IMG/VR virus record: IMGVR_UViG_3300032311_000461
Location: 1 to 63,641 of that record
Length of the DNA: 63,641 bases
Direction: 5' to 3' (one strand)
DNA from: a virus
Lineage: Duplodnaviria > Caudoviricetes
The notes under the pieces are model-generated. The model had not been told where the DNA came from and ran no database searches. It worked only from the letters and a program-made list of their open reading frames with translations. Position 1 is the first letter of the stretch. The number at the start of each line of letters is the position of its first letter. Made by a program: the position numbers and the translations under genes. This document shows, in pieces, positions 23,305 through 52,713 of this stretch.

Positions 23305-23320
23305 GGCGGGCAATAGTTAC
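23305..23320 (-). promoter_or_regulatory. Conserved motif GTAACTATTGCCCGCC upstream of scaffold/capsid operon
   Basis: Repeat of the 15632 and 26361 motif. Confidence 0.55.
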
Positions 23321-25910: not shown

Positions 25911-25928
25911 CAGACTCGCCCTCCGAAA

Positions 25929-26072
25929 CTACTTGTGGTGTCGCTCACGCCACTCTTTCCACCGGAACGCAAGCTCGGCAATCCCGCCTACGAGCGCAAC
26001 GCCACCAACGACAAAAGCGAGGTAGCACACCATCGCGTAAGTCAGGTCAACAACGAAGCGGGCGGGTTCCAT
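25929..26072 (-). CDS. 47-aa membrane protein (not in ORF track)
   Basis: MEPARFVVDLTYAMVCYLAFVVGGVALVGGIAELAFRWKEWRERHHK; ATG 7 nt after CCGGGACATAA. Confidence 0.55.
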   Translation of the reverse strand: MEPARFVVDLTYAMVCYLAFVVGGVALVGGIAELAFRWKEWRERHHK

Positions 26073-26079
26073 GCACTAC

Positions 26080-26090
26080 TTATGTCCCGG
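26080..26090 (-). promoter_or_regulatory. Late-promoter-like motif CCGGGACATAA, copy 2
   Basis: Exact repeat at the head of the leftward structural block. Confidence 0.55.
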
Positions 26091-26286
26091 CTGGCGGATT
26101 TTGCTCCGCTGCCCGCTTCTTGGCCCGGTACTGCTTCATGTAAGCCGCCTTCTTGTCCTTGAAAGCCTTGTAGGCAACCGGGTCCTGCTTCAGCACCCGG
26201 CGACGTTCGTGATAGCCACGGCGACCAGTCTCTCGGTCAGCGTCAGCGTTGATAGCGAGGTAGGCAGCGGACTTGTGCAGCGGCAT
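26080..26286 (-). CDS. Small basic protein
   Basis: 68 aa, KKAAYMKQYRAKK helix. Confidence 0.5.
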   Translation of the reverse strand: MPLHKSAAYLAINADADRETGRRGYHERRRVLKQDPVAYKAFKDKKAAYMKQYRAKKRAAEQNPPAGT

Positions 26287-26339
26287 GGGGAATCTCCCGG
26301 GGGTAATCGAACTGCATTGATTACAAGCACCCTCAGGGA

Positions 26340-26376
26340 GGCGGGCAATCCTTTGATCGCGTAACTATTGCCCGCC
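26340..26376. promoter_or_regulatory. Inverted pair GGCGGGCAAT-N17-ATTGCCCGCC at the divergence point
   Basis: Two opposed copies of the ATTGCCCGCC motif between divergent genes. Confidence 0.5.
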
Positions 26377-26385
26377 GCGTAACTC

Positions 26386-27129
26386 ATGCAGATAATGCGG
26401 TTTCAGGCTGAGTTAGTAGACATTGCCACACGGGGGACACAACCAATGAGGCTGCACGAAATCGGCGCGATATATGACCCGAAACATGAGGAAGCTCTGG
26501 CCAAGCTGAACTGGAACATCCGCAGTGGATATGCCGGGGCAAGCAAGCCCAACCCCGAAACCGGAAAAACGATGTATGCAGGAGCCATGCACCGCATCGT
26601 CTGGGAGCTTGAGTACGGCAGCCCAGCCCCAAAGCTGATCGACCACATAAACCGCAATCGGCTAGACAACCGGGTGTGCAACCTGCGGGCCGGAACACCA
26701 ATCCTGAACGCAGCCAACAACAGCGGGCAGCCAAGCCAACGGAAGTACGGGAACCCGCAGGGCTGTTACTTCGACAAGCGGTCGAGAACATTCAATGCCG
26801 CCATCACGCACAACGGCAAGGCAATCCCTCTCGGCTCCTTTGATACGCCAGAGGAAGCTCACGCCGCATACCTCAAGGCACAAGAATCGGTTCTGAAGCA
26901 CCTGACCACAGGGGAGCCGCTGGCCATCAGGGACACGACAGCAAGGCGGCAAGAAGTGCTGGCGTTACTGCAAGAGCTTGCCGCCAACAGGGCGACCCGA
27001 TCTGAGATTTGCAGAAAGGCTGACATCTCCCGGGTAACGCTTCGCAAGTACGAGAGGCTTCTGGGGCTGGAAATCACGCAGGCAAAGCGTGGAAGACCGT
27101 CAAAACGTGAAAGAAAACTGTCAGCGTAA
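26386..27129 (+). CDS. HNH endonuclease with AP2-like and C-terminal HTH domains
   Basis: MHRIV...IDHINRNRLDNRVCNLR; LGSFDTPEEAHAAY; TRSEICRKADISRVTL. Confidence 0.85.
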   Translation: MQIMRFQAELVDIATRGTQPMRLHEIGAIYDPKHEEALAKLNWNIRSGYAGASKPNPETGKTMYAGAMHRIVWELEYGSPAPKLIDHINRNRLDNRVCNLRAGTPILNAANNSGQPSQRKYGNPQGCYFDKRSRTFNAAITHNGKAIPLGSFDTPEEAHAAYLKAQESVLKHLTTGEPLAIRDTTARRQEVLALLQELAANRATRSEICRKADISRVTLRKYERLLGLEITQAKRGRPSKRERKLSA

Positions 27130-27581
27130 CCCCGTTTGTGTTTTTCGATTTACTCCAGCACCAGAACTAACAGATATACGCCCACACGCGGGGGGGCCCG
27201 GGAGCCCGCCTGCAAGCCCGCACAGGCCCGCGATTCTTCGCCCGCCCGCCCCTAGCCGCGACCGCCCGCCGCCCCGCAGAACCGCAGCCACGCGGCCACA
27301 CGGGCACTCCCGGGCATGGGCATGGCGTGGAAGCCCCGGTTGGCCCTTGGTTCCAAGGGGCAACCTCCCCACTTTTTGGGGGTTTTTCGGCTGACCAGCG
27401 GTGATTTTTTCACCACCCGGTGAACTTTTCCTCACCACCAAGGGGGGGTTTGTTGTCACCTTCGGTGGTCAGGCTGGCAGCTTTCCGCCACGGGCTGCGC
27501 GTTTGCGGTCATGGGCCCGCGCTGTCTTCCCCGGGTGTGTGCGTCCCCTCGCGTGCGCTGTCTTCGTGTGTGTGCGCCCGG

Positions 27582-27611
27582 AATCCCCGGAGGGGATTTT
27601 GGCCCTCTGGT
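27582..27611 (+). repeat. Hairpin-box element 1 (AATCCCC-GGA-GGGGATT-T-TGGCCCTCTGGT)
   Basis: 7-bp stem, 3-nt loop, 1 nt, conserved 12-mer. Confidence 0.9.
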
Positions 27612-27670
27612 TGTTGTCGGCAACGGCCAGTGTGGTCGCTGCGGCACAGCACACAACGGGAGGCACGGTC

Positions 27671-27874
27671 ATGCACACAGTCGAGCAGTACGTCAACGGG
27701 GAGTTCGTGGTGGCGGCACGGTTCACCGACATTCAGGACGCATACGAGTTCGCCAACGACATCGACGGGCTCGTCATCCCTGAAGGGATGACCGACGAGG
27801 GGGCGATTGCCAACCGGCGGCTGGATTTCATGGAGGCCGCTTGCGGGTGGTTCTGTGCGGCTGACGAGCGGTGA
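27671..27874 (+). CDS. Early hypothetical protein
   Basis: MHTVEQYVNGEF, GGGAGG SD. Confidence 0.75.
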   Translation: MHTVEQYVNGEFVVAARFTDIQDAYEFANDIDGLVIPEGMTDEGAIANRRLDFMEAACGWFCAADER

Positions 27875-27892
27875 GCCCTCGCACACACGCGG

Positions 27893-27922
27893 AGTCAGGG
27901 GACCTGACTGTGGCCCTCTGGT
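27893..27922 (+). repeat. Hairpin-box element 2 (AGTCAGG-GGA-CCTGACT)
   Basis: Same geometry, covarying stem. Confidence 0.9.
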
Positions 27923-27927
27923 TGGTG

Positions 27928-27973
27928 GCGGTGGCTGATCGGCAGCCTGACGGGTTCGATGCCCGTTCACCGC
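27928..27973 (+). ncRNA. Anticodon-less tRNA-like element 1
   Basis: GCGGTG/CACCGC closing stem, GCTG-ATCGG-CAGC hairpin, GACGGG-TTCGATG-CCCGTT T-arm. Confidence 0.7.
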
Positions 27974-28009
27974 ACTGGGTTCGGTTGTCCATTCACGGGA
28001 GGAACGATC

Positions 28010-28414
28010 ATGCAAGGGGTCATGCGGCAGGCAGTGACGGGGCGGAAGATTGAGCAGCGCATGGAGCGGGCCATGCGATGGGGCTTTGAAGACTGGCGGC
28101 AGACGAACACTGCGGTCACTTCGTTCTACGAAGGGCCCCTGTGGGTGCAGGAAATTCGCCTGCACGGCAACCTGATTGCCCGGGTCGAAAGGGGCTGCAT
28201 CGGGACCCGAAAGTTCGGCCACCGTCAAGTGAAACTTGACCACTGCGGCTGGAAGACGGCGACCACGAAAAGCCGCATGAACGCAGTGCTGAAAGCACTC
28301 GACCTGCCCATCAGCGTGTACCAGAGCAAGGGCGAGTGGTTCCTCTGGAACCAGACGGCGACCGTTCCGGCTGGTCGCTTTGACGATTTCAACGTGATCA
28401 CGCTCAACCCGTAA
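28010..28414 (+). CDS. Conserved phage early protein
   Basis: IRLHGNLIA...GWKTATTKSRMNA motif seen in many phage proteins; GGGAGG SD. Confidence 0.8.
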   Translation: MQGVMRQAVTGRKIEQRMERAMRWGFEDWRQTNTAVTSFYEGPLWVQEIRLHGNLIARVERGCIGTRKFGHRQVKLDHCGWKTATTKSRMNAVLKALDLPISVYQSKGEWFLWNQTATVPAGRFDDFNVITLNP

Positions 28415-28426
28415 TCACACACGCCT

Positions 28427-28456
28427 ACTCAACGGAGTTGAGTGTGGCCCTCTGGT
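28427..28456 (+). repeat. Hairpin-box element 3 (ACTCAAC-GGA-GTTGAGT)
   Basis: Same geometry. Confidence 0.9.
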
Positions 28457-28460
28457 TGGC

Positions 28461-28506
28461 AGCGACGGTGATCGGCACCGTCCGGGGTTCGACTCCCCGG
28501 GTCGCT
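28461..28506 (+). ncRNA. Anticodon-less tRNA-like element 2
   Basis: AGCGAC/GTCGCT, GGTG-ATCGG-CACC, CCGGGG-TTCGACT-CCCCGG. Confidence 0.75.
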
Positions 28507-28547
28507 CTGTTTCGTGTTCGGTTGTCTCACACACAAGGGGTTTTCAC

Positions 28548-28808
28548 ATGACGGCTACGCAAATTCGGGCGGCACTTCAGGCGGAACGCGACGAGCTTTG
28601 CACCACCTTTGGCTTCGCCAACCGATGGACGGCGATGATTTTCCAGTGGTGCCGCGATGCGGGGTTTGGGGATGACGGCAGTGACCGGGAACTGGGCGAC
28701 ATTGCCTATGACCTGCGGGCCTTCGTGGAGGGGGCGAAAAACGTGCCCGCCTACCGGCTCGACAACGTGGACTTCGTGCAGATCGCACTCTGCTTGCAGA
28801 TCGACTAA
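28548..28808 (+). CDS. Early hypothetical protein
   Basis: 86 aa after the CACACACAAGGGG leader. Confidence 0.75.
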   Translation: MTATQIRAALQAERDELCTTFGFANRWTAMIFQWCRDAGFGDDGSDRELGDIAYDLRAFVEGAKNVPAYRLDNVDFVQIALCLQID

Positions 28809-28860
28809 GGCCGAAACCGGGGAAACCCGGTCGCACCGTAACGCGGTGCCTGACGAGGCC
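28809..28860 (+). ncRNA. Hammerhead ribozyme (type II) 1
   Basis: GGCC-GAAA-CCGGG(GAAA)CCCGG-TC^-GCACCG(TAACG)CGGTGC-CTGACGA-GGCC; full catalytic core, cleavage after C28832. Confidence 0.92.
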
Positions 28861-28897
28861 ATTCGTCCCCCTGATTGGTCGATGGGGTCACTCGACT

Positions 28898-28938
28898 GCC
28901 TCCCGGTGGACGTTCCATCGGGGGGCTTTTCTTTTCTT
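28898..28938 (+). terminator. Intrinsic terminator
   Basis: GCCTCCCGGTGGA/TCCATCGGGGGGC stem plus TTTTCTTTTCTT. Confidence 0.75.
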
Positions 28939-28957
28939 CACGCGAAGGATCACACCC

Positions 28958-29227
28958 ATGTTGGTGCCTGACTATGACCGGATGATCGACGTTTTCCCGG
29001 GCGAAACCTATGAGGTTCTCATGCCCTATTCCGAAGTGTGTATGCACATGGGAATCGCGGGGACCGTTCGACGGATTCTGGTCCGCGAAGCGGGGCAGGG
29101 CGTTTACCTGCTGAACGATGACCTGACAACGGGCCCGCACATGACGAGCGGCGAGGCCGGGATTCTGGGTTGCTCACACAGCCATCCCTACACCTACGGG
29201 TTCAAGTACGAGCCCTCCCGTGCGTAA
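28958..29227 (+). CDS. Early hypothetical protein
   Basis: 89 aa, AAGGA SD. Confidence 0.7.
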   Translation: MLVPDYDRMIDVFPGETYEVLMPYSEVCMHMGIAGTVRRILVREAGQGVYLLNDDLTTGPHMTSGEAGILGCSHSHPYTYGFKYEPSRA

Positions 29228-29256
29228 TTCCCCGGAGGGGAATGTGACCCTCTGGT
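29227..29256 (+). repeat. Hairpin-box element 4 (ATTCCCC-GGA-GGGGAAT)
   Basis: Same geometry, box TGACCCTCTGGT. Confidence 0.9.
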
Positions 29257-29260
29257 TGGC

Positions 29261-29310
29261 AGCGGTTGGCTGACGGAAGCCTCTCCCCGGTTCGACTCCG
29301 GGGAACCGCT
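29261..29310 (+). ncRNA. Anticodon-less tRNA-like element 3
   Basis: AGCGGTT/AACCGCT, GGCT-GACGGA-AGCC, CCCCGG-TTCGACT-CCGGGG (T-stem inverted relative to element 2). Confidence 0.75.
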
Positions 29311-29346
29311 CTGTTTCGGGTTCGATCACACACAAGGGGCACCATC

Positions 29347-29676
29347 ATGGCATGGTCGATTTCGATTACAGCCGAAGGCTGGGCTGACATCCGCAAGGAA
29401 CTGGAAACGTGGGACCGGCAGCGGATTATCGACGCACTGGCTGACGATGCGTTTGAAGCTGCGGAGCAGGCCAACGGCGACGATGGCAAGGGCTACGAGG
29501 AAACCGTGTCGCCCGACGATGCGGCGGATGCCTGCCGTGCCAGTCTGGAATCGGCGGCGGATGACACGCTGGTTGACGCTGCGATGGACTGCATTGAGCG
29601 CAACAACACTTGCGACAACGGCGGCTTCCGGTACTGGATCGACCGGGAGGGGTATCACGGGGTAACGCTCGACTGA
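29347..29676 (+). CDS. Acidic early hypothetical protein
   Basis: MAWSISITAEGW, 109 aa. Confidence 0.75.
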   Translation: MAWSISITAEGWADIRKELETWDRQRIIDALADDAFEAAEQANGDDGKGYEETVSPDDAADACRASLESAADDTLVDAAMDCIERNNTCDNGGFRYWIDREGYHGVTLD

Positions 29677-29678
29677 CA

Positions 29679-29730
29679 AGCCGAAACCGGGGCAACCCGG
29701 TCTGCCAGTAACGCTGGCACTGACGAGGCT
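29679..29730 (+). ncRNA. Hammerhead ribozyme (type II) 2
   Basis: AGCC-GAAA-CCGGG(GCAA)CCCGG-TC^-TGCCAG(TAACG)CTGGCA-CTGACGA-GGCT; stems covary with copy 1. Confidence 0.92.
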
Positions 29731-29755
29731 ACACACTCACAACGGGAGCCATTCA

Positions 29756-30097
29756 ATGGCCGAAAAACTGACGATTGGTGGCGTGGAAATCACGGTGGTG
29801 GCAGGCGACTGCGACCGGGAAGGCCGGACGGTTTTCACCTACACCCTGAAGGGTGCCGGGATCGACCACGAAGCCAGCGACCTGAAATCCGGCTGCGGTA
29901 GCAGGGGCCGGAAGGACCGTGACGGGATGGAATCCCTCCTGTCCTTCCTTGGTGCGGCGGCGGAAGCCTACGGATACCACCTTCGGATGGGCGGCGGGAG
30001 TGACAACGGCGACCTTTTCCCCCCGGAGGTCATGGAATGGGCCTATCAACACGACAACGAAATCAGCATGGCTGCCGACGAGTACGCATATGCGTAA
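29756..30097 (+). CDS. Early hypothetical protein
   Basis: 113 aa, GGGAG SD. Confidence 0.75.
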   Translation: MAEKLTIGGVEITVVAGDCDREGRTVFTYTLKGAGIDHEASDLKSGCGSRGRKDRDGMESLLSFLGAAAEAYGYHLRMGGGSDNGDLFPPEVMEWAYQHDNEISMAADEYAYA

Positions 30098-30125
30098 CCA
30101 ACGGAGTTGGTTCTGGCCCTCTGGT
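30096..30125 (+). repeat. Hairpin-box element 5 (AACCAAC-GGA-GTTGGTT)
   Basis: Same geometry. Confidence 0.9.
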
Positions 30126-30129
30126 ATTC

Positions 30130-30178
30130 GACGGTTGTGGTTCGGCCACCGTCCGGGGTTCGATGCCCCGGAACCGTC
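30130..30178 (+). ncRNA. Anticodon-less tRNA-like element 4
   Basis: GACGGTT/AACCGTC, GTGG-TTCGG-CCAC, CCGGGG-TTCGATG-CCCCGG. Confidence 0.75.
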
Positions 30179-30211
30179 CTGTGTTCGATTGCCCACACTT
30201 GGAGAGCGACC

Positions 30212-30526
30212 ATGACGAAACAGGAAGAGATTGACCTTCTCAAGACCTTTGTGGGCAACCTGCCCGAAGGGTATCTCAAGGATGCACTGGCACCGTTTGT
30301 GCCTGACTTTGAGTGTGGCATTCGTAGCGACATCGTGCCCTCAGTGTGGGATTCCTACCACGCTCGGGTCAAAGCTGACGAAGACCGGGATCGGTCAGAG
30401 CGGCTGGCCCGGATTGCAAAGTCTCAGGCCGACAAGGAAGAGCAACGTCTGCTTGCCGCACAGCGGGCGGTGGACGGCTATGCGGCTTCAATCAAGCAAA
30501 CGCTGCGGAGCTTGACCGGGAACTGA
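30212..30526 (+). CDS. Early hypothetical coiled-coil protein
   Basis: MTKQEEIDLL, GGAG SD. Confidence 0.75.
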   Translation: MTKQEEIDLLKTFVGNLPEGYLKDALAPFVPDFECGIRSDIVPSVWDSYHARVKADEDRDRSERLARIAKSQADKEEQRLLAAQRAVDGYAASIKQTLRSLTGN

Positions 30527-30602
30527 CGGTATCCAACCACCCTCTCCCTTCGGGGAGGGGGAAATTGGGGATCGTTGGTTACACACACAAGAGGGTTCGA
30601 CC

Positions 30603-30995
30603 ATGAAATTCGACCGGAAATTCGACAAGTTTGTCGGCGTTGGGGACACGATCAAGGCAGACATCACCGACAAGATGCAACTCGTTGCCACTCTCGTCTA
30701 TGACGATCAGTGCCAGCCCACAGACTTCGACTGCTACGAGGAAGCCGACATTGAGCGGTGGAAGAATGACGAGTGGATTTTCGTGGGGATCGTGTTGTCC
30801 ATTCAATCGCACGACGGCACGATCCACACACGCCTTGATTCCCTTTGGGGAAACGAGGCCAACCTCGGTGACAACAACGATCACCTGACCGACGTTGCCA
30901 ACGAGTTGATTGACGAGCGGGACATCGTTGACGCACTGCGGAAGATTTACGAACCCGTAACCCGGGCGATTGAGACTCTCACACGCACAGCCTAA
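30603..30995 (+). CDS. Acidic early hypothetical protein
   Basis: 130 aa, WKNDEWIFVGI...SLWG motif. Confidence 0.8.
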   Translation: MKFDRKFDKFVGVGDTIKADITDKMQLVATLVYDDQCQPTDFDCYEEADIERWKNDEWIFVGIVLSIQSHDGTIHTRLDSLWGNEANLGDNNDHLTDVANELIDERDIVDALRKIYEPVTRAIETLTRTA

Positions 30996-31019
30996 CAGAG
31001 TTAGGCATGACCCTCTGGT
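30990..31019 (+). repeat. Hairpin-box element 6 (GCCTAAC-AGA-GTTAGGC)
   Basis: Same geometry, AGA loop, overlaps the upstream stop codon. Confidence 0.9.
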
Positions 31020-31038
31020 TGGTATCGGTTGGATGACG

Positions 31039-31070
31039 GCCCCGGCAATTTCGCCGGGGCTTTTCTTTTT
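31039..31070 (+). terminator. Intrinsic terminator
   Basis: GCCCCGGC/GCCGGGGC plus TTTTCTTTTT. Confidence 0.8.
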
Positions 31071-31092
31071 CACACACAAGGGGACCGCAACG

Positions 31093-31467
31093 ATGGCAAA
31101 CGACAACTACACCGAGAACATGGCCGACATTTTCCAGTGCCCCCGGGAAAGGCGGATGGTGCTGGAAATCCTGAAGGCATGGGAGTCCGGCGGGCTGCCG
31201 AAGGACTTCGATGACAGGGGCGTGAAGCTGGCGTTCAACCGCAGTAGCGGCAACGTCTTCCTCGTCAACGAGGAATATCAGGTGGCAATGGTGGAGGGGC
31301 TCTGTCTGGAGTCCTTCTACTCCAGCCCATACGAGGGCAAGGAGGGGTTCTTCACCGACCTCCTGAGCGAGTACCCGTCGATGCACCGCGAGGATCAGGA
31401 GTGGTTCCGCGACATCGCAGAGGCGACCGGCAAGCAGGACTTGCTGCCCGCCTTGGACGACGAGTGA
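31093..31467 (+). CDS. Early hypothetical protein
   Basis: FNRSSGNVFLVNEEYQVAM...SPYEGKEGF, 124 aa. Confidence 0.8.
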   Translation: MANDNYTENMADIFQCPRERRMVLEILKAWESGGLPKDFDDRGVKLAFNRSSGNVFLVNEEYQVAMVEGLCLESFYSSPYEGKEGFFTDLLSEYPSMHREDQEWFRDIAEATGKQDLLPALDDE

Positions 31468-31469
31468 CA

Positions 31470-31566
31470 GGGCGAAACCGGGGCGGGCTGGGTAGGGGCA
31501 TTGCGTCCCCACTAAATCCGGCAAGCCTGCCCCGGTCTGTGGGTACTTTCCCACACTGACGAGCCC
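31470..31566 (+). ncRNA. Hammerhead ribozyme (type II) 3 with extended stem III
   Basis: GGGC-GAAA-CCGGGGCGGGCT...AGCCTGCCCCGG-TC^-TGTGGG(TACTTT)CCCACA-CTGACGA-GCCC; cleavage after C31537. Confidence 0.88.
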
Positions 31567-31581
31567 ATTACGAGGTGCAGC

Positions 31582-32043
31582 ATGAAGCGGTATCAGGTGC
31601 GGTTCCACCTTGCCAAAGGTGAAAACCACGGGAAGTGGCAGGTCAAGAGCATGGCCGGGGTGCGGTACTACGATCCCGCTGCCGTGAGCCTGACCCTGTT
31701 GGATTGCCAACTGCGGAACCAACCCGCGACGGCAAAGAAGGTCTATGACGGTGCGAACAAGTCGGTGTGTGCGTGGATCGACTGCAACGAGGTGCTGACG
31801 GCAGCACCGCACACCCCGGCGGGACTGCCGGTGTCCTACGATCCCCGGGTTGCACCGCATTGGCGGAACCTGACGGGCGGGAACATCGACGGCATGAGCC
31901 TGTCTGTCCTGCGGACGGTGAGCAAGAGCGTGTTCTTTACGGGAGAGCGGACGATCACAGTCGGCGGTCTGGTGCAGCTTGCACCACCGGCTGATGAGCG
32001 GGAGGAAGAACTGCGGATGACCCGCATGAGGAGGGAGCGATGA
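31582..32043 (+). CDS. Early hypothetical protein
   Basis: VRFHLAKGENHGKWQVK...KSVCAWIDC, GAGG SD. Confidence 0.8.
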   Translation: MKRYQVRFHLAKGENHGKWQVKSMAGVRYYDPAAVSLTLLDCQLRNQPATAKKVYDGANKSVCAWIDCNEVLTAAPHTPAGLPVSYDPRVAPHWRNLTGGNIDGMSLSVLRTVSKSVFFTGERTITVGGLVQLAPPADEREEELRMTRMRRER

Positions 32044-32261
32044 GCCACACAACGACGATGATGGACCTGACCCGGGGTGAGCTTTCCATCCTTGCTACCG
32101 CTCTTGAGAGAGAGTGGCAGCGGACTGGCAAGCTGTGGACCGATGGTAACCGGGACGGTTGGTATGACGAGAAGGCGAAGGAGCGGGTGGCCGTCCACCT
32201 GCATGAGACTGAGCGGCTTTTCAACAAGGTAAACACACGCATCAAGGAGCTTGACGCATGA
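32040..32261 (+). CDS. Early hypothetical protein
   Basis: 73 aa, ATGA coupling. Confidence 0.7.
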   Translation: MSHTTTMMDLTRGELSILATALEREWQRTGKLWTDGNRDGWYDEKAKERVAVHLHETERLFNKVNTRIKELDA

Positions 32262-32279
32262 ACTGGTAACGCACACACG

Positions 32280-32309
32280 GCTCAACAGAGTTGAGCATGA
32301 CCCTCTGGT
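32280..32309 (+). repeat. Hairpin-box element 7 (GCTCAAC-AGA-GTTGAGC)
   Basis: Same geometry. Confidence 0.9.
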
Positions 32310-32318
32310 TGGTATCTG

Positions 32319-32351
32319 ACCCCCGGCAATTTCGCTGGGGGTTTTTCTTTT
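32319..32351 (+). terminator. Intrinsic terminator
   Basis: ACCCCCGGC/GCTGGGGGT plus T-run; same AATTTC loop as 31039. Confidence 0.8.
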
Positions 32352-32367
32352 AACAAGGGGATGAGCG

Positions 32368-32781
32368 ATGGCAACGTCAGACATTATTGCGGCAATGGCA
32401 GCGGGCACCACGGCGACGGCAACCAAGCGGGTTGGACGGGGCAAGGCGGCGGTGGAGGTGACCATCACCCGGACTGCCCCGGAGGTGGTGGTGGTGGACG
32501 AGACAGTGAAGGAGGAGCCGGTCAGCTACAGCAACAAGCTGCCGGTGGACGAGGGCAAGCGGGCGGTGGATGTGCTGCCGGGGCTGCGACTGTGGGCCTA
32601 CTCCCGGGGCTATCGAGTCTTGGAGCAGACCGGAAAGACCTACACCGGCAGCAAGGCAAAGCTGCGGCGGGTTCTGTACCGGGATGACCTGATCCACCTC
32701 GCCAACATCCTGTTGGAAGAAGCGGAGAACACGCTGACCTATGACGAGGCTCACGGCAATGCGGATGCCGTGCCCTTCTAG
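32368..32781 (+). CDS. Early hypothetical protein
   Basis: 137 aa, ends DAVPF. Confidence 0.7.
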   Translation: MATSDIIAAMAAGTTATATKRVGRGKAAVEVTITRTAPEVVVVDETVKEEPVSYSNKLPVDEGKRAVDVLPGLRLWAYSRGYRVLEQTGKTYTGSKAKLRRVLYRDDLIHLANILLEEAENTLTYDEAHGNADAVPF

Positions 32782-32863
32782 TCCTGCGGCCCACTGCCAA
32801 CTCCCGTGACTGAGACACGGGAGCCAGTTGTGGATCGGGGTTCGATGACACAGGAGACACACG

Positions 32864-33466
32864 ATGACACAGGCAACGAGCATTCTGGGCGACACGATCA
32901 TGGCACAGGCGAAGGCTTTCAAGGAGGCCCGGTCGCAGTTCGATGAGCAGTTCATGGACTGGTCCCGGGGCATCCCGCCTCTGGCACCGGAACACTTCTG
33001 GCCGATGGTCGATGAGTTCCGCGAGGTGCTGATCTACACCATGCAGCACAGGAAGGAAGGCTATGTGGAGGCAGCGGCAGACGAGTTCATGCGGCGGACT
33101 GTGGTAAACAGCGGCGACCTTGCTGCGGCTGTTCACTTCGCCCTGTCGTGGACCCACTACAAGGGCAAGGCGTATGCGGCTGGCGACAAGATGGGATTCT
33201 CGTTCGACCGGGGTGATGACAGCTACGGTGACTTGATGGATGCCGTGCCGCTGCTGGGCCAGAGCTTCAACGAAAGGATGGAGCTTGGCAAGTTCGACAC
33301 GCTGCGTGAGTTCAACGAGCAGGTCGATGCCACCTGCAATGTGGCAGGCCGGTGCCTGAGGAATGAGGTGCTGTTCGGGGAGAACTACTTCTCCATGTGC
33401 CTGCAAGATGCGGCACAGAAGTGGTTGGTGATTGAGTCTCGCAACTACGGAAAGGGAGGTGAGTGA
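32864..33466 (+). CDS. Hypothetical protein
   Basis: 200 aa, CAGGAG SD, GDDSYGDL motif. Confidence 0.8.
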   Translation: MTQATSILGDTIMAQAKAFKEARSQFDEQFMDWSRGIPPLAPEHFWPMVDEFREVLIYTMQHRKEGYVEAAADEFMRRTVVNSGDLAAAVHFALSWTHYKGKAYAAGDKMGFSFDRGDDSYGDLMDAVPLLGQSFNERMELGKFDTLREFNEQVDATCNVAGRCLRNEVLFGENYFSMCLQDAAQKWLVIESRNYGKGGE

Positions 33467-33789
33467 TGAACCGGCAAGAGATGTTGCGAAAGCAGGGAAC
33501 GACGCGGCTGTGGCGGGAGCGGGTTCCCTTTATGAAAGAGGAGCGTTGCTCCAAGGTCCGGGTGCTGGGCATCGCACCCTTCACCATCGACAGGGTGGAA
33601 GGGACTTACCTTGTGGAGTTCAACGCTCACACGGGGAAGTCGCTGACCTACGGTGAGATGTACCGGGTGCCGGTGGTTGCGTTCGACCTGCGTTACCCGG
33701 ATGGCAAGGTGGTGCGTTACCAATCCCTGCGGCAAGCACGGGCGGCGGCTGCCCTGATGGCAGCGGAACGAAGAAAGGTGGTGAAGTGA
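33463..33789 (+). CDS. Hypothetical protein
   Basis: Coupled ORF, GGAGG SD. Confidence 0.7.
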   Translation: MMNRQEMLRKQGTTRLWRERVPFMKEERCSKVRVLGIAPFTIDRVEGTYLVEFNAHTGKSLTYGEMYRVPVVAFDLRYPDGKVVRYQSLRQARAAAALMAAERRKVVK

Positions 33790-33974
33790 TGAAGCGGACG
33801 CTTGAGTTGGCGCAGGTCGGGGCACTGAATGGTGTCGGTGTCGGATACCGGGTGGTCAAGCTGACCAATACGGTGGAGCCCTGCATCGGGGAGTATCTCA
33901 GCACCAGTGAGGTGAAGGATTTCATTCGCCGTCCGGGTTGGACGGTGGTCATCAAGAAAGGGAACGGTGAGTGA
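33786..33974 (+). CDS. Hypothetical protein
   Basis: Coupled 62-aa ORF. Confidence 0.65.
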   Translation: MMKRTLELAQVGALNGVGVGYRVVKLTNTVEPCIGEYLSTSEVKDFIRRPGWTVVIKKGNGE

Positions 33975-34252
33975 TGGCAACGATTCGACTGCAATCCCTG
34001 AAGGGGGAGAAGCGAGAAGGGTTCACGCCGATGGGTGTTCACACCCCCGGCCTGATCGGCTGGGCAGTAGCTGGGTTCACGGGCAATGGGAATGATCCCA
34101 TTGTGCGGATCATCGCGGAGTCCTTCAGCCTCAAGCGGGAGGTGGCACTGGCCATCCTGACCGGCGAGGTGGACTACCGGGTGGACGGGGACGATGTGGT
34201 GTTCGACTGGCCGGGGGATGACCCCATTGTCAAGGAGGTGAGCGGTGGATGA
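33971..34252 (+). CDS. Hypothetical protein
   Basis: Coupled 93-aa ORF. Confidence 0.7.
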   Translation: MMATIRLQSLKGEKREGFTPMGVHTPGLIGWAVAGFTGNGNDPIVRIIAESFSLKREVALAILTGEVDYRVDGDDVVFDWPGDDPIVKEVSGG

Positions 34253-34427
34253 GGACATCAAGGTGAATCTGGAGGGGCTAAAGTTCATGGCCCGTCTGGT
34301 GGATGCGGTGGTGCAACTGAGGCAGTACATCCACACCCATACCCCGGGAGGATGGGAAGGGTATGACTATGCCGATAAGGTCGATCAACTTTTAAGCGAA
34401 GCAGATGCCTTCGGGGAGGACGAGTGA
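34245..34427 (+). CDS. Hypothetical protein
   Basis: AAGGAGG SD, 60 aa. Confidence 0.65.
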   Translation: MDEDIKVNLEGLKFMARLVDAVVQLRQYIHTHTPGGWEGYDYADKVDQLLSEADAFGEDE

Positions 34428-34597
34428 TGGACTGTTCGATTTGTGGGAAGCCGATCCCCGCTGTTGGGGACTGGACTGAGGGTAACAGTGCGGAGCCCGT
34501 GAATGACGGGCGGTGCTGCGACCAATGCGACATGGCTGTGGTGATCCCGGCCCGCATTCAAGAGATGAAGCAACGCAGAAAGGTAGGTGGCAAGTGA
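34427..34597 (+). CDS. 56-aa zinc-finger protein (not in ORF track)
   Basis: MDCSICGKPI...GNSAEPVNDGRCCDQCDMAVVIPARI; GGAGG SD, TGATG coupling. Confidence 0.75.
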   Translation: MDCSICGKPIPAVGDWTEGNSAEPVNDGRCCDQCDMAVVIPARIQEMKQRRKVGGK

Positions 34598-34908
34598 GGA
34601 CAACGATGACTCTGGTGCTGGCCCTTGTGGCTGGCGTGGCACAAGCACAGTACCCCTACGTCCAGCCGGGATGGGGGTACTGGAACAAGGCGGAAGCCAT
34701 GCGACAGCAAGCGTGGCAGAACCAACAGTGGCAGCGGGATCAGTGGCAGCGTGAGCGTGACTACCTTTGGGGCGGCGACTCCATTGACTACGGGCAGCGG
34801 GCAGCCAACCTTCGCAAGACAAAGGAGGAAGCGAGGGGCCTGCGATTGCAGAACGACAGGATGGAAAGCCAAGGCAACCCATACCTGAACAATCCGTTTG
34901 AACGATAG
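34594..34908 (+). CDS. Secreted Gln/Trp-rich protein
   Basis: Signal peptide MTLVLALVAGVAQA|QYPY. Confidence 0.65.
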   Translation: MRTTMTLVLALVAGVAQAQYPYVQPGWGYWNKAEAMRQQAWQNQQWQRDQWQRERDYLWGGDSIDYGQRAANLRKTKEEARGLRLQNDRMESQGNPYLNNPFER

Positions 34909-34909
34909 C

Positions 34910-34939
34910 TTGACAGTATACGCATGTATACTTTAGGAT
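34910..34939 (+). promoter_or_regulatory. Sigma70-like promoter with palindromic operator in the spacer
   Basis: TTGACA-N18-TAGGAT; AGTATAC-GCAT-GTATACT perfect inverted repeat at 34915..34932. Confidence 0.7.
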
Positions 34940-34949
34940 AGCGGGCACA

Positions 34950-34979
34950 AGGTAACGGAGTTACCTCTGGCCCTCTGGT
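34950..34979 (+). repeat. Hairpin-box element 8 (AGGTAAC-GGA-GTTACCT)
   Basis: Same geometry, a few nt after the predicted +1. Confidence 0.9.
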
Positions 34980-35002
34980 TAGTAGCAGCAACAACGGACT
35001 TG

Positions 35003-35039
35003 ACCCGGCAGCCACTTTGGCTGACCGGGTTTTCTTTTT
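35003..35039 (+). terminator. Intrinsic terminator
   Basis: ACCCGG-CAGCC/GGCTG-A-CCGGGT plus TTTCTTTTT. Confidence 0.8.
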
Positions 35040-35057
35040 CCCATAAGGAGATTCGCA

Positions 35058-35939
35058 ATGAACGTCCAGACTTCCGGTATCGCTGATCGTATGCGGGCCA
35101 CCTTCCCCACCGTCATCAAGGCTCCCTTGCATGGGCCGGATGGGCTGACAACCGACTGGCATGGGCTGTGGCGGATGGACAACCACCAAGCGGTGGGCCC
35201 CGGCTCAGTCAGTGCAAGGTATGCACCTCACACCAGCGAGGACGTAATCGCTCTGGTCGAGGCGGCGGAACACACCTTCGGTGAGGTGGGGGACGTTGAG
35301 ATGGGCTTCAACCACGGGCACTTCATCAGCGTGGCACCCAAGCTGTCGAAGGAGAAGCGGCTGGAACTGTACGAGAACGACATCGTATTCCCCCGGCTGA
35401 TGATCAATGCCCCCTATGGGTCCAGCTTTCGGGCCAACGTGGGCCTGTTCCGTATCGTGTGCAGCAATTTGTACACGATGCGGGAAGTGTCGGGGATCAG
35501 CGTCACCTTCCGCCATACCCACAGCCTGCGGTCGAAGATGGACGAACTCATCTCCGACTTCCGGTTGCTGGAGCATGGGTGGGACCGGCTGTCGGAGCGG
35601 GTGACCGCGATGACGCAGGCCAAGACTCAGGTGGCCGACTTCCTCGACTCCATATACGGGGTGCCAGCGGACGAGGCCAGTGAGCGGAGCGTGACCATGC
35701 ACAAGAACCGCACCCGGGCAATCATCACCCGGATGGCACAGGAACGCATCCGGGTTCACGGCAATGCCGGTGACCTGATGCAGGCCACCCACTGGGAAAT
35801 GTTCAACGCCATTCAAGGCTTTGTCCAGCACGACAAGTCCCGCAAGGGGAACGTGTCGGCGGTGGATCGCATCATCCTTGCCAACGAGGACGAGACTGTG
35901 CGGCGGGCTGAGAAGTTGCTGTTGGAGTTGGCGGTCTGA
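35058..35939 (+). CDS. DUF932/DUF945-like protein
   Basis: VSARYAPH...INAPYGSS...FRIVCSN...RHT...WEMFNAIQGFVQH. Confidence 0.75.
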   Translation: MNVQTSGIADRMRATFPTVIKAPLHGPDGLTTDWHGLWRMDNHQAVGPGSVSARYAPHTSEDVIALVEAAEHTFGEVGDVEMGFNHGHFISVAPKLSKEKRLELYENDIVFPRLMINAPYGSSFRANVGLFRIVCSNLYTMREVSGISVTFRHTHSLRSKMDELISDFRLLEHGWDRLSERVTAMTQAKTQVADFLDSIYGVPADEASERSVTMHKNRTRAIITRMAQERIRVHGNAGDLMQATHWEMFNAIQGFVQHDKSRKGNVSAVDRIILANEDETVRRAEKLLLELAV

Positions 35940-36005
35940 CCACAAGGCAGAGCGGGGCGGGGAGTGCGTTGCTCCTCGCCCCGCTGGCCACAAGGGGAAC
36001 TAACC

Positions 36006-36314
36006 ATGAACAGGCTGTCCGAATACCGAATGAGTGAACGACGGCTACTGAAACCGGGCACACGATTCACCGCGAAGGGCGGGCCGGTCTACCAGCTATC
36101 TGATGGGACCGCCGTGCCACTGGCATCGCGGGGCCCCTTTGAGTTCATCGCTTACTGCCAAGCGGATGGATATGACTTCATCCAAGCACGGGATAGGGAC
36201 GGGTGTAGTGCAGTGCTGCACCTAACAGGGGAGAGAAAAACAGCCAGCCCTGAGATTATCGGCAGGCCATACACGTTGGGGAAAGTGTTCCGCAAGAAAC
36301 AACCAAGGAGGTGA
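36006..36314 (+). CDS. Hypothetical protein
   Basis: MNRLSEYR, 102 aa. Confidence 0.7.
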   Translation: MNRLSEYRMSERRLLKPGTRFTAKGGPVYQLSDGTAVPLASRGPFEFIAYCQADGYDFIQARDRDGCSAVLHLTGERKTASPEIIGRPYTLGKVFRKKQPRR

Positions 36315-36317
36315 GCG

Positions 36318-36479
36318 ATGTTCAAGTACCGTTACAAGGATGGACTAGCCCAGTCGGAGAGCGAGATGATTCGTGCCCTGCGATTGCGAGGCTATGCGGT
36401 AGTTGTGGTGAAGGCAGGAGCCATGCAGCGGGGGCTGGTCGAAGACGCTATGAAGAAAGCAGCAAAGGTGAAAGCATGA
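36318..36479 (+). CDS. 53-aa hypothetical protein (not in ORF track)
   Basis: AAGGAGGT SD, MFKYRYKDG...ALRLRGYAVVVV. Confidence 0.6.
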   Translation: MFKYRYKDGLAQSESEMIRALRLRGYAVVVVKAGAMQRGLVEDAMKKAAKVKA

Positions 36480-36736
36480 TCGCTATAGTCGAGTTGGGTT
36501 ACGTCATCTACTGGCTGAAAACCTTTTACCCCAGCCTAGAGAACGCGGAGGTGTACAAGCAGCGGCTGTGGGTTACAGCCGGGATGCTTGCGGTCCTGTC
36601 GGTGGCTGGCCACCTATCCTCAAAAGAATTGGGGGCGGTGGTTTCGGGCTGGGCGATTGCCATTGAACTGGCGAGTGTGGTTCTCAACGTGATGAACCTT
36701 GACGATAGACTCTTTCCCCGGAAGGAAACCTACTGA
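36476..36736 (+). CDS. Membrane protein
   Basis: Two to three hydrophobic segments, ATGA coupling. Confidence 0.6.
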   Translation: MIAIVELGYVIYWLKTFYPSLENAEVYKQRLWVTAGMLAVLSVAGHLSSKELGAVVSGWAIAIELASVVLNVMNLDDRLFPRKETY

Positions 36737-36942
36737 TGGAACATGACCCCTACGAAGAGAATCGCAGCCTGCCCAAGGTGGATTACGCCAGCCTTGAGTA
36801 CCGGCTGTACCGGCTGGCATCAGCCTGTTACGCCTACCTTGACGAGAACGATCCCAAGCAGGCGCGGCTCAAACAACTGTGTAACGATCTGCCTCAGGAG
36901 TACGAAGAACGATCCATGCGGCAACACAAGGAAAGGAACTGA
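36736..36942 (+). CDS. Hypothetical protein
   Basis: 68 aa, TGATG coupling. Confidence 0.65.
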   Translation: MEHDPYEENRSLPKVDYASLEYRLYRLASACYAYLDENDPKQARLKQLCNDLPQEYEERSMRQHKERN

Positions 36943-36947
36943 CCACC

Positions 36948-37184
36948 ATGACCAGCACCACGGTAGCCTTGACTGAGCGGCAGGAGGAAATCCTGCGGTT
37001 CATTGCCATGCACATCGACATCAATGGGTTCCAGCCCAGCTTCAGAGAGATGATGGATCGGTTCAAGATCAGGAGCCCCAACGGAATCACTGCCCACCTC
37101 AGGGCACTGGAGAAGAAGGGGGTCATCGCGTCCAACTACCAAACCTCACGGGCAATCAGCTTTGCATGGAAGGAGTGGCTTTGA
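36948..37184 (+). CDS. LexA-type winged-HTH DNA-binding domain only (no peptidase domain)
   Basis: LTERQEEILRFI...GFQPSFREM...SPNGITAHLRALEKKGVI...SRAI. Confidence 0.88.
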   Translation: MTSTTVALTERQEEILRFIAMHIDINGFQPSFREMMDRFKIRSPNGITAHLRALEKKGVIASNYQTSRAISFAWKEWL

Positions 37185-52710: not shown

Positions 52711-52713
52711 TGA

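Follow-up and report, generated by a model that had tools for sequence, protein, structure and literature searches.

What is signalled by a small hairpin with a fixed sequence box that stands at the head of every block of early genes is the question raised by the window analysed here, the complete 63.6-kb record (63,641 nt) of an uncultured freshwater phage. Eight hairpin-box copies occur between positions 27582 and 34979, all on the + strand. Each unit consists of a 7-bp stem, a 3-nt loop, one spacer base and a TGRCCCTCTGGT box (8/8 copies), and in most copies the conserved box runs on to TGGTTGG. The first-pass annotation of this DNA had described eight covarying 7-bp hairpins, each followed by one base and the box. 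The same stems were recovered, with Watson-Crick pairing in 56/56 stem cells and compensatory changes on both sides at 7/7 stem pairs, values matched in none of 500 shuffles; control stems slid along the sequence paired in only 27–45% of their cells. The loops, annotated as GGA or AGA, were GGA in six copies and AGA in two. With up to one mismatch allowed, TGRCCCTCTGGT was found nine times in the window, without exception as an exact match on the + strand; shuffles had a mean of 1.11 occurrences, and nine were reached in 0/100. The ninth exact box, at 47703 (+), lacks a hairpin, as does a box-only copy on the other strand at 42478–89 (−). A covariance model scored the eight copies at 54.5–64 bits, compared to 15.7 bits for the next match in the window.

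Across the family the stem sequence is free, while loop, spacing and box are fixed. Of 31 distinct copies, 29 have a GGA loop, 29 a C-G closing pair and 30 a purine as the third base past the stem, and in none is the stem extended by an eighth Watson-Crick pair. The 19 distinct stems comprise 132 Watson-Crick pairs out of 133, the remaining one being G-T. Just 5' of the hairpin, 7/8 copies carry an alternating purine-pyrimidine run of at least 8 nt, as opposed to 1.8% of 18-nt background windows, and this tract occurs in both CA and GT versions. No conserved pairing partner was found for the box, leaving an element of one helix only. In the Rfam comparison that had been suggested along with the annotation, the hairpin-box matched none of the Rfam 15 covariance models at gathering score in the whole window, nor any at E values up to 10 in region 27300–35200; it is a gene-control signal without a match to any described family. 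A sigma-54 promoter was considered as well, as TGGCCC-TCTGG-TTGG resembles one. The sigma-54 consensus has GG and GC doublets 10 nt apart (TGGCAC-N5-TTGC). This candidate was rejected: the GC doublet is missing in 8/8 copies and the GG in 3/8, and the boxes of the relatives G2, G4 and G5 lack the GG.

The copies are confined to early gene starts, where they stand directly behind a stop codon (0–18 nt past it, or overlapping it) or a promoter, 60–125 nt ahead of the next + strand gene. The + strand location of the downstream genes is given by their GC1/2/3 coding signature and by Pfam matches, and the GGA loop thus also lies on the coding strand. Copy 1 (27582–27614; hairpin 27582–98, AATCCCC GGA GGGGATT; box 27600–11) has GTGTGTGCGC directly 5' and a non-coding stretch of about 540 nt before it; it is followed by gene 27671–27874, with neither a tRNA-like element nor a terminator behind it. 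Copies 2 to 5 are each followed by a tRNA-like minihelix. In copy 2 (27893–27925; hairpin 27893–909, box 27911–22) the minihelix spans about 27927–73 (hand-counted) and the next gene is 28010–28414; in copy 3 (28427–28459; hairpin 28427–43, box 28445–56) these are 28461–28506 and 28548–28808. Copy 4 (29227–29259; hairpin 29227–43, box 29245–56) begins with the last base of the stop codon of gene 28958–29227 and precedes a minihelix at about 29261–310 (hand-counted) and gene 29347–29676. The stem of copy 5 (30096–30128; hairpin 30096–112, box 30114–25) is overlapped by the stop codon of gene 29756–30097, with a minihelix at 30130–78 and gene 30212–30526 downstream. Copy 6 (30990–31022; hairpin 30990–31006 with AGA loop, box 31008–19), whose 5' arm contains the stop codon of gene 30603–30995, is followed by a terminator and gene 31093–31467. 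Copy 7 (32280–32312; hairpin 32280–96 with AGA loop, box 32298–309) likewise precedes a terminator and then an eight-gene block (32368–34908), and copy 8 (34950–34982; hairpin 34950–66, box 34968–79) heads a seven-gene block (35058–38020).

Copy 8 had been placed about 10 nt behind a promoter and about 23 nt ahead of a terminator, and both statements held. The sigma-70-type promoter (34910–34939, + strand; TTGACA-N18-TAGGAT, with palindrome GTATACGCATGTATAC in its spacer) has a −10 element that ends 10 nt before hairpin 8 in the window and 10–13 nt before it across the versions compared; the expected start site is about 3–5 nt ahead of the hairpin. The order promoter, copy 8, terminator is kept in five distinct sequence versions (W, G2, G4/L259, G5/L258 and L260). 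With the promoter kept at this distance, the element would therefore be transcribed from its first bases. A second sigma-70-like promoter (26368–26396, + strand; TTGCCC-N17-GATAAT) lies at the left end of the + strand block and is identical in G4 and similar in G5. Scanning the + strand from 25900 to 35100 for sigma-70-like sites (at least 8/12) yielded only three, one of them intragenic, and no other promoter within 27.6–34.9 kb.

A scan for strong intrinsic terminators (at least 7 T in 9) listed only three in the entire window, all on the + strand and all in early 5' leaders: 31038–31070 behind copy 6, 32318–32352 behind copy 7, and 28898–28936, which has a hammerhead ahead of it and no copy in front. 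The terminator behind copy 8 (35002–35039, + strand), also in an early leader, was read by eye; it has an 11-bp GC-rich stem followed by TTTTCTTTTT, and the single bulge in its stem kept it off the scan lists. Box-to-terminator distances are 18, 8 and 22 nt for copies 6, 7 and 8; three of the four terminators thus follow a copy, and five of the eight copies have no following terminator. Among relatives, the T-run sites lie behind a copy in 4/4 cases in G5 and 4/5 in L258. Since the gap from terminator to ribosome site is too short for a promoter, read-through is required regardless of the nature of the element. The early region further contains three motifs that resemble type II hammerheads, with scores of 31.1, 21.3 and 19.7 bits against a gathering score of 37. 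It also holds four tRNA-like minihelices, the best of which scores 32.8 bits to mascRNA-menRNA; 10/15 of their pairs are compensatory, and unlike the hairpin-box stems they use G-U pairs freely. In four copies a putative RNase P-type site lies 4–5 nt past the box.

In 60 Pfam and 20 PHROG protein queries (some proteins in both), no phage RNA polymerase family was among the matches. The largest frame (1267 aa) has LPD38/LPD3 polyvalent proteins as its nearest named Atlas clusters and no sequence match in the PDB. Scripted motif scans revealed no motif B of single-subunit polymerases and no DxDGD in a plausible frame. Among the proteins scanned there was no recognisable N, Q or NusG-like/KOW protein, a search that a divergent small N could escape, and no phage ribonuclease was identified. 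The genome does encode a sigma-like protein of 185 aa, a serine recombinase, a weak integrase match, an endonuclease VII-like protein, ERF and three HNH proteins.

Related records carry 7–8 hairpin-box copies each. In one lineage the box has changed in concert to CCCTGTTGG (6/7 copies in G5, 7/7 in L258), while TGGTTGG is retained at a fixed distance from the stem, with TGG exactly 9 nt from it. This pattern suggests a specific partner that recognises the element at a fixed distance. In G5, a copy occupies the slot of the window's hammerhead ahead of terminator 28898–28936. At least nine related contigs have an HNH gene, inserted behind the terminase gene, with a copy at its head; the copy of this cassette is on the other strand, and its orientation is still that of the downstream gene. 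Metagenome joints fall at element borders, for example linking 27927 to 28462 (2 runs) and 27646 to 27881 or 27882 (3 runs), and others run from one copy's box into the downstream part of a second copy; further joints lie at hammerheads or within genes. The loop of copy 6, AGA in the window, is GGA in 4/4 metagenome runs. No gene ahead of the first terminator is common to the three lineages compared (W, G4 and G5).

Tentatively, and at somewhat less than an even chance, we regard the element as a strand-specific and lineage-specific signal that controls transcription and stands at the 5' border of each early expression module. Its anatomy, covariation and positions are shown, as are the promoters and terminators around it and the absence of any phage polymerase that could be recognised. 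Our best reading, which we hold with similar reserve, is that of a signal letting host RNA polymerase read through terminators. Host RNA polymerase would transcribe the early genes from a few sigma-70-type promoters (26368 and 34910). As it crosses an element, the nascent 7-bp hairpin would sit in the RNA exit channel, and the next 12–16 nt, the box, would fill the hybrid and the exposed non-template strand. The complex might pause there and convert to a terminator-resistant form, either alone, as with put, or with a phage or host factor loaded at this point, as with nut or ops. The converted polymerase would then pass the intrinsic terminators of the early leaders, and hammerheads and RNase P sites at the tRNA-like elements would cleave the long transcript into single messages.

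The missing polymerase, the small number of sigma-70-like sites, the kept order of promoter, copy 8 and terminator, the terminators in the leaders and the concerted box change all favour read-through, without lifting it to an even chance. A free stem with fixed loop, spacing and box is also the pattern of hairpin-dependent pause signals and nut-type signals. Against read-through, the hairpin looks DNA-like in its almost exclusive Watson-Crick pairing, its C-GGA-G loop and its CA/GT tract; a tract present in both CA and GT versions is a property of duplex DNA and counts against read-through at the RNA level. Most copies precede no terminator, and the terminator at 28898 has no copy ahead of it. 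An RNase P-type cut just past the box, as predicted for four copies, would sever the element from the polymerase. Neither an N, Q or NusG-like protein nor a shared gene before the first terminator was found. The exchange of copy and hammerhead in G5 and the copies heading HNH genes are more in line with a promoter or with a site that forms RNA ends.

Known antitermination systems resemble the hairpin-box in part. Lambdoid nut sites, two in number, consist of a boxB hairpin, whose 5-nt loop is GNRA-like, and a boxA 5' of it, and have a cognate N protein with an arginine-rich motif that is encoded ahead of the first terminator; HK022 put RNA has two adjacent stem-loops in about 70 nt. As in nut and put, a hairpin with a free stem and a fixed loop stands here beside a short conserved single-stranded box, and variants are lineage-specific; the location between an early sigma-70 promoter and terminators (copy 8, and copies 6 and 7 before terminators) is also nut-like. 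However, the loop has 3 nt and not 5, the box is 3' and not 5' of the hairpin, there are eight sites instead of two, the pair composition is DNA-like and a single 17-nt hairpin replaces the two stem-loops of put. The nut- or put-like signal proposed in the first-pass annotation is supported by terminators, promoter order and the absence of a polymerase match, whereas loop size, box side, the single hairpin and the lack of an N-like protein argue against membership in either family. The ops/JUMPStart element, a 12-nt leader element of long operons, is recognised in the paused complex, on the non-template strand, by NusG paralogues of the RfaH type. The hairpin-box likewise has a 12-nt conserved leader element, which would be read on the non-template strand and confer read-through, but its sequence is unrelated, no NusG/KOW protein was found among the proteins scanned, and ops has no covarying hairpin. 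In the early region of T7, repeated promoters, each a 23-bp duplex, are followed by RNase III sites. The arrangement is similar here, in that recurring conserved signals alternate with short early genes and many of them have a processing structure directly downstream; in contrast, processing is of the tRNA-like and hammerhead type, and there is neither a T7-type polymerase nor a 23-bp duplex promoter.

Instead of acting in RNA, the hairpin could be a promoter of the N4 kind, a reading that we consider possible but rather unlikely. Supercoiling would extrude the palindrome and a polymerase would start 2–3 nt past the stem; this would be either a phage enzyme that escaped recognition or the host polymerase aided by a phage factor, for instance the sigma-like protein of 185 aa. 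The tRNA-like elements and hammerheads would trim the 5' ends, in the way that RNase III sites act downstream of T7 promoters. According to PMC4496689, extrusion in N4 needs a 5–7-bp stem, a 3-nt loop 5'-G(A/G)A-3' and a C-G closing pair. The 7-bp stem, GGA loop and C-G closure correspond to these features, as they do to the early promoters of the virion polymerase of N4 (Schitoviridae) described there, in which the stem bases are also free if paired, the element is repeated before early genes and the distance from stem to the +1 purine agrees. In this respect, with the C-GGA-G exactly that of N4 and one G-U in 133 pairs, the N4 alternative is stronger than the annotation had held. The strictly Watson-Crick stem that is never extended to an eighth pair, the upstream tract in either polarity, the purine at the +1 of N4 geometry, the lack of other promoters in 27.6–34.9 kb, the lineage-specific box, as phage promoters are, and the presence of a sigma-like gene are all consistent with it. 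So are the copy heading the mobile HNH cassette and the exchange with a hammerhead, since a promoter and a ribozyme both create a new 5' end.

The annotation's two objections nevertheless hold: the coding strand carries the GGA loop, whereas in N4 this loop belongs to the template strand and the transcribed genes lie 5' of the hairpin on that strand, and the search gave no polymerase gene, be it for a giant virion RNA polymerase with T7-like motifs or of another kind, with the largest frame resembling polyvalent proteins. Three copies would fire directly into a strong terminator 8–22 nt past the box, a conserved sigma-70 promoter directly precedes copy 8, and the −8 position of N4 is mostly A here and not G. 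N4 has three copies and not eight, and differs from this phage, where a 12–16-nt invariant box stands 3' of the hairpin and terminators or tRNA-like elements directly behind. Extruded hairpin promoters without a recognisable polymerase gene, which we judge unlikely, would imply either a new polymerase hidden among unannotated virion or early proteins or a hairpin-assisted host polymerase. In the latter version a stable non-template C-GGA-G hairpin would keep the duplex open, and transcription would start at the fixed purine 3 nt past the stem, perhaps with the phage sigma-like protein. Either version, if true, would be N4's mechanism in mirror image, and a promoter built in a new way. Read-through and the N4-kind promoter, both put forward in the annotation, remain the two leading candidates, the annotation's interpretation as a whole being partly supported.

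Other explanations appear less probable. A site of RNA processing or stability, which we regard as quite unlikely, would use the hairpin as a protective 3' end of the upstream or 5' end of the downstream message and the single-stranded box as a target that an endoribonuclease of host or phage would cut or bind, a third type of punctuation next to the hammerheads and RNase P sites. The early region consists of RNA-end-forming devices, the G5 copy sits in the exact hammerhead slot, and copies adjoin or overlap stop codons. A hairpin 3–5 nt from the primary 5' end, as hairpin 8 would be, is well placed as a 5' stabiliser. Hammerheads flanking phage genes have been interpreted as message processing (PMC3088659). 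However, a cut 4–5 nt ahead of an RNase P site would add nothing, a host RNase E-type site requires no fixed loop and no lineage-concerted invariant box of 12 nt, a phage ribonuclease was not identified, and G-U pairs hardly occur; for a self-cleaving ribozyme one helix is too little, and no partner of the box was found. The DNA-like hairpin, the joints at element borders and from the box of one copy into another, the recombinase, integrase, endonuclease VII-like, ERF and HNH genes and the two box-only copies would suit a DNA site for recombination, nicking or repressor binding, be it as cassette borders for the phage's recombinases or endonuclease VII, as strand-specific nick sites of the kind seen in some podoviruses or as 'stoperator'-like operators. 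This appears very unlikely: the joints at hammerheads and inside genes are what plain homologous recombination between repeats predicts, the orientation always follows the downstream gene, even in the HNH cassette on the other strand, copies are confined to early gene starts, and a dimeric duplex-binding protein would not explain the free stem. Slightly more remote still are small RNAs or attenuator leaders with a 5' hairpin, the C-rich box as a seed and a 3' end made by a terminator or RNase P, acting in trans on host or phage messages. By inspection, the box has no consistent pairing to local ribosome sites and the G5-type box loses an existing match; the expressed strands of the window yielded no complementary target, five of the copies are not followed by a terminator, and the HNH cassette and hammerhead exchange would be left unexplained. 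Nonetheless, promoter 34910, copy 8 and its terminator form a unit of about 95 nt with the classic small-RNA layout, kept in 5/5 versions, and copies 6 and 7 could be 3'-UTR-derived.

The hairpin-box element, which consists of a 7-bp stem around a 3-nt loop, one spacer base and a fixed box, occurs eight times on the + strand between 27582 and 34979 (copies 1-8, 5' to 3'). The covarying hairpins described by the first-pass annotation held up at every position: all 56 stem cells are Watson-Crick with compensatory change at every pair, and a covariance model scored the eight copies at 54.5-64 bits and everything else in the window at 15.7 bits or less. The box that it had described was recovered in nine occurrences, every one on the + strand. 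Its type in the window is TGRCCCTCTGGT, and conservation extends beyond it to TGGTTGG. In seven of the eight copies, an alternating purine-pyrimidine run of 8-14 nt lies 0-3 nt upstream of the stem, a feature of 1.8% of random 18-nt windows; it is of the CA type at some copies and of the GT type at others. The copies abut the preceding gene: its stop codon falls within the stem or touches it in copies 4, 5 and 6, and in copies 2, 3 and 7 it precedes the stem by 10-18 nt. The next start codon follows at a distance of 60-125 nt. The exact 12-nt box, or its extension CCCTCTGGTTGG, was also found without a hairpin inside - strand genes (47703-14, +; 42478-89, -), in regions lacking a counterpart in the related uncultured phage records G2, G4 and G5. 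Several copies, not all, carry GGTTGG-N4-GGTTGG after the box (29252-29272 and 31015-31035, +), which we take to resemble the two-tetrad thrombin-aptamer quadruplex motif.

Pattern and protein searches yielded a small clade of uncultured phages with roughly 70-90% DNA identity, and the element is kept in every related record examined. Seven copies each are found in the homologous block of two complete records and of a fragment that is 62% complete, with one further weak match in G004 (14.5 bits); seven copies are present in L258, a 20.5-kb locus from a 52.8-kb contig. Six loci reached via a DUF932 anchor had none. Orthologous stems differ by compensatory changes (AGGTAAC to AGATAAC, AACCAAC to AATCAAC, ATTCCCC to ACTCTCC), and where the stem holds the stop codon (GCCTAAC to AACTAGC) the stop is retained and the opposite arm adjusted. 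The 19 distinct stems comprise 133 pairs, of which 132 are Watson-Crick and a single one is G-T; as the relatives are all close, this covariation reflects paralogues and a clade of little depth. Stem length is always exactly 7 bp (an eighth Watson-Crick pair in 0 of 31 distinct family copies), with a GGA loop in 29 of 31 copies and a C-G closing pair likewise in 29. The AGA loop of copy 6 in the window is GGA in all four metagenome runs compared.

The box is lineage-specific. It is mostly TGAGCCTCTGGT in G2 and G4, and TC[GA]CCCTGTTGG in six of seven G5 copies and in all seven of L258. TGG is 9 nt from the stem in every box type, and 30 of 31 distinct copies have a purine as the third base 3' of the stem. 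The one deviating G5 copy, set in a stretch with 86.6% identity to the window, is probably a recombinant. The element is strongly selected, and in one lineage it has changed in concert. A comparison of protein identities between lineages gave no clear candidate for a box-specificity factor; the protein encoded at 36006 was rejected as the determinant since it is 97% identical between the window and G5 despite their different boxes.

The window spans a complete IMG/VR virus record of 63,641 bp that carries direct terminal repeats. The - strand encodes a P22-type portal, the large terminase, tail proteins and three large ejection-protein-like products, and also the replication and recombination block (38-48 kb) with a helicase, ERF, a PDDEXK protein, an endonuclease VII-like protein, MazG, a dATP/dGTP diphosphohydrolase and a 185-aa sigma-like protein. 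The early block comprises about 28 short + strand genes from 26.4 to 38.0 kb, whose frames show the coding signature of the genome (GC per codon position about 0.6/0.43/0.75); by the same measure, the signature is absent from the long - strand frames of this block. The frame 27089-27394 was judged non-coding, which leaves about 540 nt of non-coding DNA ahead of copy 1. No cultured relative emerged: megablast with 27000-36000 against phages gave no match, the nearest terminases by tblastn were those of Arthrobacter phages at only 27% identity, and a portal search of GTDB genomes found no relative. Public DNA runs containing parts of the window are labelled lake or freshwater metagenomes; most contain only about a fifth of the sampled words, and this habitat is no more than a lead.

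The early block has an unusually explicit grammar of sigma-70 promoters, hairpin-box signals, hammerheads, tRNA-like putative RNase P sites and leader terminators. On the + strand between 25.9 and 35.1 kb, only two sigma-70 promoters look usable, named by their first coordinates 26368 and 34910. Promoter 26368 is also present in G4, and G5 has a similar version. Promoter 34910, which the first-pass annotation had placed before copy 8, is retained in five of five distinct sequence versions, 10-13 nt before hairpin 8 (34950-66; box 34968-79), and the terminator proposed behind this copy corresponds to a bulged GC hairpin and T run identified by eye at 35002-39 (+). A GC hairpin and T run follow each of copies 6-8. 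A whole-window scan listed three strong intrinsic terminators on the + strand (28898-28936, 31038-70 and 32318-52; listed at 28926, 31060 and 32341) and none at operon ends elsewhere. All four terminators are located in the leaders of early + strand genes just ahead of the ribosome site, leaving no room for a promoter in between. No gene upstream of the first terminator is common to the three lineages compared.

Four tRNA-like minihelices directly follow copies 2-5 on the + strand (about 27927-73, 28461-28506, about 29261-310 and 30130-78). Each has an acceptor-like stem, a 4-bp arm and a T arm with GGTTCGAnnCC, while the anticodon arm is absent; no tRNAs were predicted by ARAGORN. Compensatory changes occur at 10 of 15 pairs, G-U pairs are present, and the top Rfam match, mascRNA-menRNA, reached 32.8 bits, below the gathering score of 42.5. 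These minihelices are likely RNase P substrates. In addition, three motifs resembling type II hammerheads lie in early intergenic spaces on the + strand (28809-28864, 29679-29737 and 31470-31570), all with the full CUGAnGA, GAAA and GUC core and scores of 21.3, 31.1 and 19.7 bits, respectively, none reaching the gathering score of 37; in the third, stem I is interrupted by 45 inserted nt. In a pattern scan, the relatives had one to five such motifs each. Passages of an earlier report interpret hammerheads flanking phage genes as serving the processing of long transcripts (PMC3088659).

The relatives show two informative rearrangements. In G001 and at least eight other contigs (L153, L156, L163, L164, L183, L215, L224 and L246), an other-strand copy is positioned directly 3' of the terminase stop and heads an HNH endonuclease gene of about 228 aa. 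This mobile cassette of copy and gene (597-1369, -, in L124 (G001)) is missing from the window. In G5 and L258, a copy occupies the exact slot of a hammerhead in the window, G2 and G4, with the same small hairpin, terminator and gene downstream either way. DNA contigs from four metagenome runs displayed joints at element borders, including the box of one copy joined to the downstream part of another; since further joints occur at hammerheads and inside genes, this looks like ordinary recombination between repeats. Natural relatives represented among these contigs also differ by whole-gene gains and losses in 27300-35200, with borders that coincide with hairpin-box copies or hammerheads. The early block is a cassette mosaic, and the element provides a practical marker of module borders where early genes, possibly anti-defence genes, are shuffled in natural populations.

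Queries numbered 60 against Pfam and 20 against PHROG, with some proteins in both sets. No polymerase family was obtained, in agreement with the missing RNA polymerase gene of the first-pass annotation, and no family of N, Q or NusG. The 185-aa sigma-70-family-like protein (37938-38495, -), encoded by the last gene of the replication block, gave weak matches to Sigma70_r4_2 (E 7e-4), antitermination Q (E 3e-3) and a PHROG sigma factor (E 2e-3); its homologues extend down to 46% identity, and some of them carry the JGI names sigma-70 or sigma-24 family. Motif scans for a single-subunit polymerase detected neither motif B nor an aspartate triad in a credible frame. A 1267-aa protein had no PDB match, and its closest named Atlas clusters are polyvalent proteins (LPD38/LPD3 'polyvalent protein'). 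It is one of three consecutive large gene products (836, 427 and 1267 aa; 48907-56504, -), partly of low complexity and with predicted membrane segments, that are probably ejection or internal virion proteins.

To our knowledge, hairpin-plus-box signals occur in only a few phage systems, namely N4 promoters and the nut and put antiterminators. The element would work like one or another of these, yet fails defining features of each. Compared by description with the general definitions of nut, put, ops, sigma-54 promoters and pause signals, it differs from nut in loop size, in the order of parts and in that no N was found, and from put in having one hairpin instead of two. Of the nut- or put-like antitermination signal proposed earlier, the antitermination type stands as the top-ranked reading, while membership in either class does not. 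From the N4 promoter the element differs by the strand of its loop, the objection already raised at first pass, and by the lack of a recognizable polymerase. No family in Rfam 15 matches the element and the box letters retrieved only unrelated primers from the literature; no published description was found in either.

The transcription context and the DNA-like features of the hairpin pull in opposite directions, and we therefore ranked five readings. Tentatively placed first, at less than even probability, is an elongation or antitermination signal. The promoters are of the host type, no phage polymerase was found, terminators lie right behind the element, and promoter 34910 fires straight into copy 8; together, these facts point to a signal read by the elongating host polymerase. 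Any model requires a read-through mechanism, and between start and terminator nothing is conserved in sequence except the hairpin-box. By analogy with his-type pauses and ops, the geometry of the element, a hairpin and then a fixed stretch of 12-16 nt whose 10th-11th bases are TG, would also fit a hairpin-stabilized pause; the bubble of a polymerase paused in this manner would expose just the box. The hairpin itself, on the other hand, looks like DNA: G-U is almost never used, unlike in the neighboring RNA structures, and the flanking purine-pyrimidine tract occurs in either polarity. Both features, together with the loop and closing pair of N4 extrusion as described in excerpts of PMC4496689, favor a DNA hairpin promoter, and the HNH cassette and the hammerhead swap fit something creating a new message start. 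With the loop on the wrong strand and no recognizable polymerase, we regard this reading as possible though doubtful. An RNA processing or stability site appears unlikely; a DNA recombination, nick or operator site has only a slim chance, and a small-RNA module is the least probable of the five. The rest of the probability falls to none of the five.

Other explanations were rejected. A loop-box pseudoknot (CRGAG with CUCUG) fits the window and is lost with the G5-type box, and pairing of the box as an anti-Shine-Dalgarno sequence for the downstream gene is weak, inconsistent and absent in G5. The sigma-54 and ECF-type promoter readings fail by inspection, as the element is without the key doublets or a -35 element and its stem varies. 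A leftward N4-type promoter with a + strand template is contradicted by the element always heading the downstream gene, also in the other-strand HNH cassette, and the - strand frames of the region have no coding signature. A 'G4-type priming site' (hairpin then CTG) was ruled out, since all copies are confined to 7.4 kb.

If the RNA reading is true, the element represents a new antitermination signal; if the DNA-hairpin reading is true, N4-type promoter logic reaches beyond the Schitoviridae. The early region represents a compact model for the timing and cutting of early transcripts by a phage without a recognizable polymerase of its own.

Further sequence features were noted. The spacer of promoter 34910 contains a palindrome, GTATACGCATGTATAC (34916-34931, +), and the operon behind this promoter encodes a 78-aa LexA DNA-binding-domain protein (36948-37184, +; E 5.6e-22); the palindrome may be an autoregulated operator. 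A similar sequence, ACAGATATACGC, is found ahead of copy 1 in a GC-rich non-coding stretch of about 450 nt (27130-27580, +). Blocks of this stretch, such as GAACTAACAGATA and CCCGCAGAACCGCAGCCACG, are kept in the window, G1, G4 and G5, and it is a candidate origin, non-coding RNA or promoter region. Finally, four occurrences of a second repeat, G[TG]AACTATTGCCCGCC, were found (26361-76, +; 23320-05, 19634-19 and 15647-32, -). In two cases its TAA is the stop of the upstream gene (the terminase, 15644, and the gene at 23317-24678), and at 26361 its TTGCCC forms the -35 of a sigma-70-like promoter. The HNH cassette of G001 is inserted directly after GTAAC of this repeat, which may function as part of a promoter, in homing or in protein binding.
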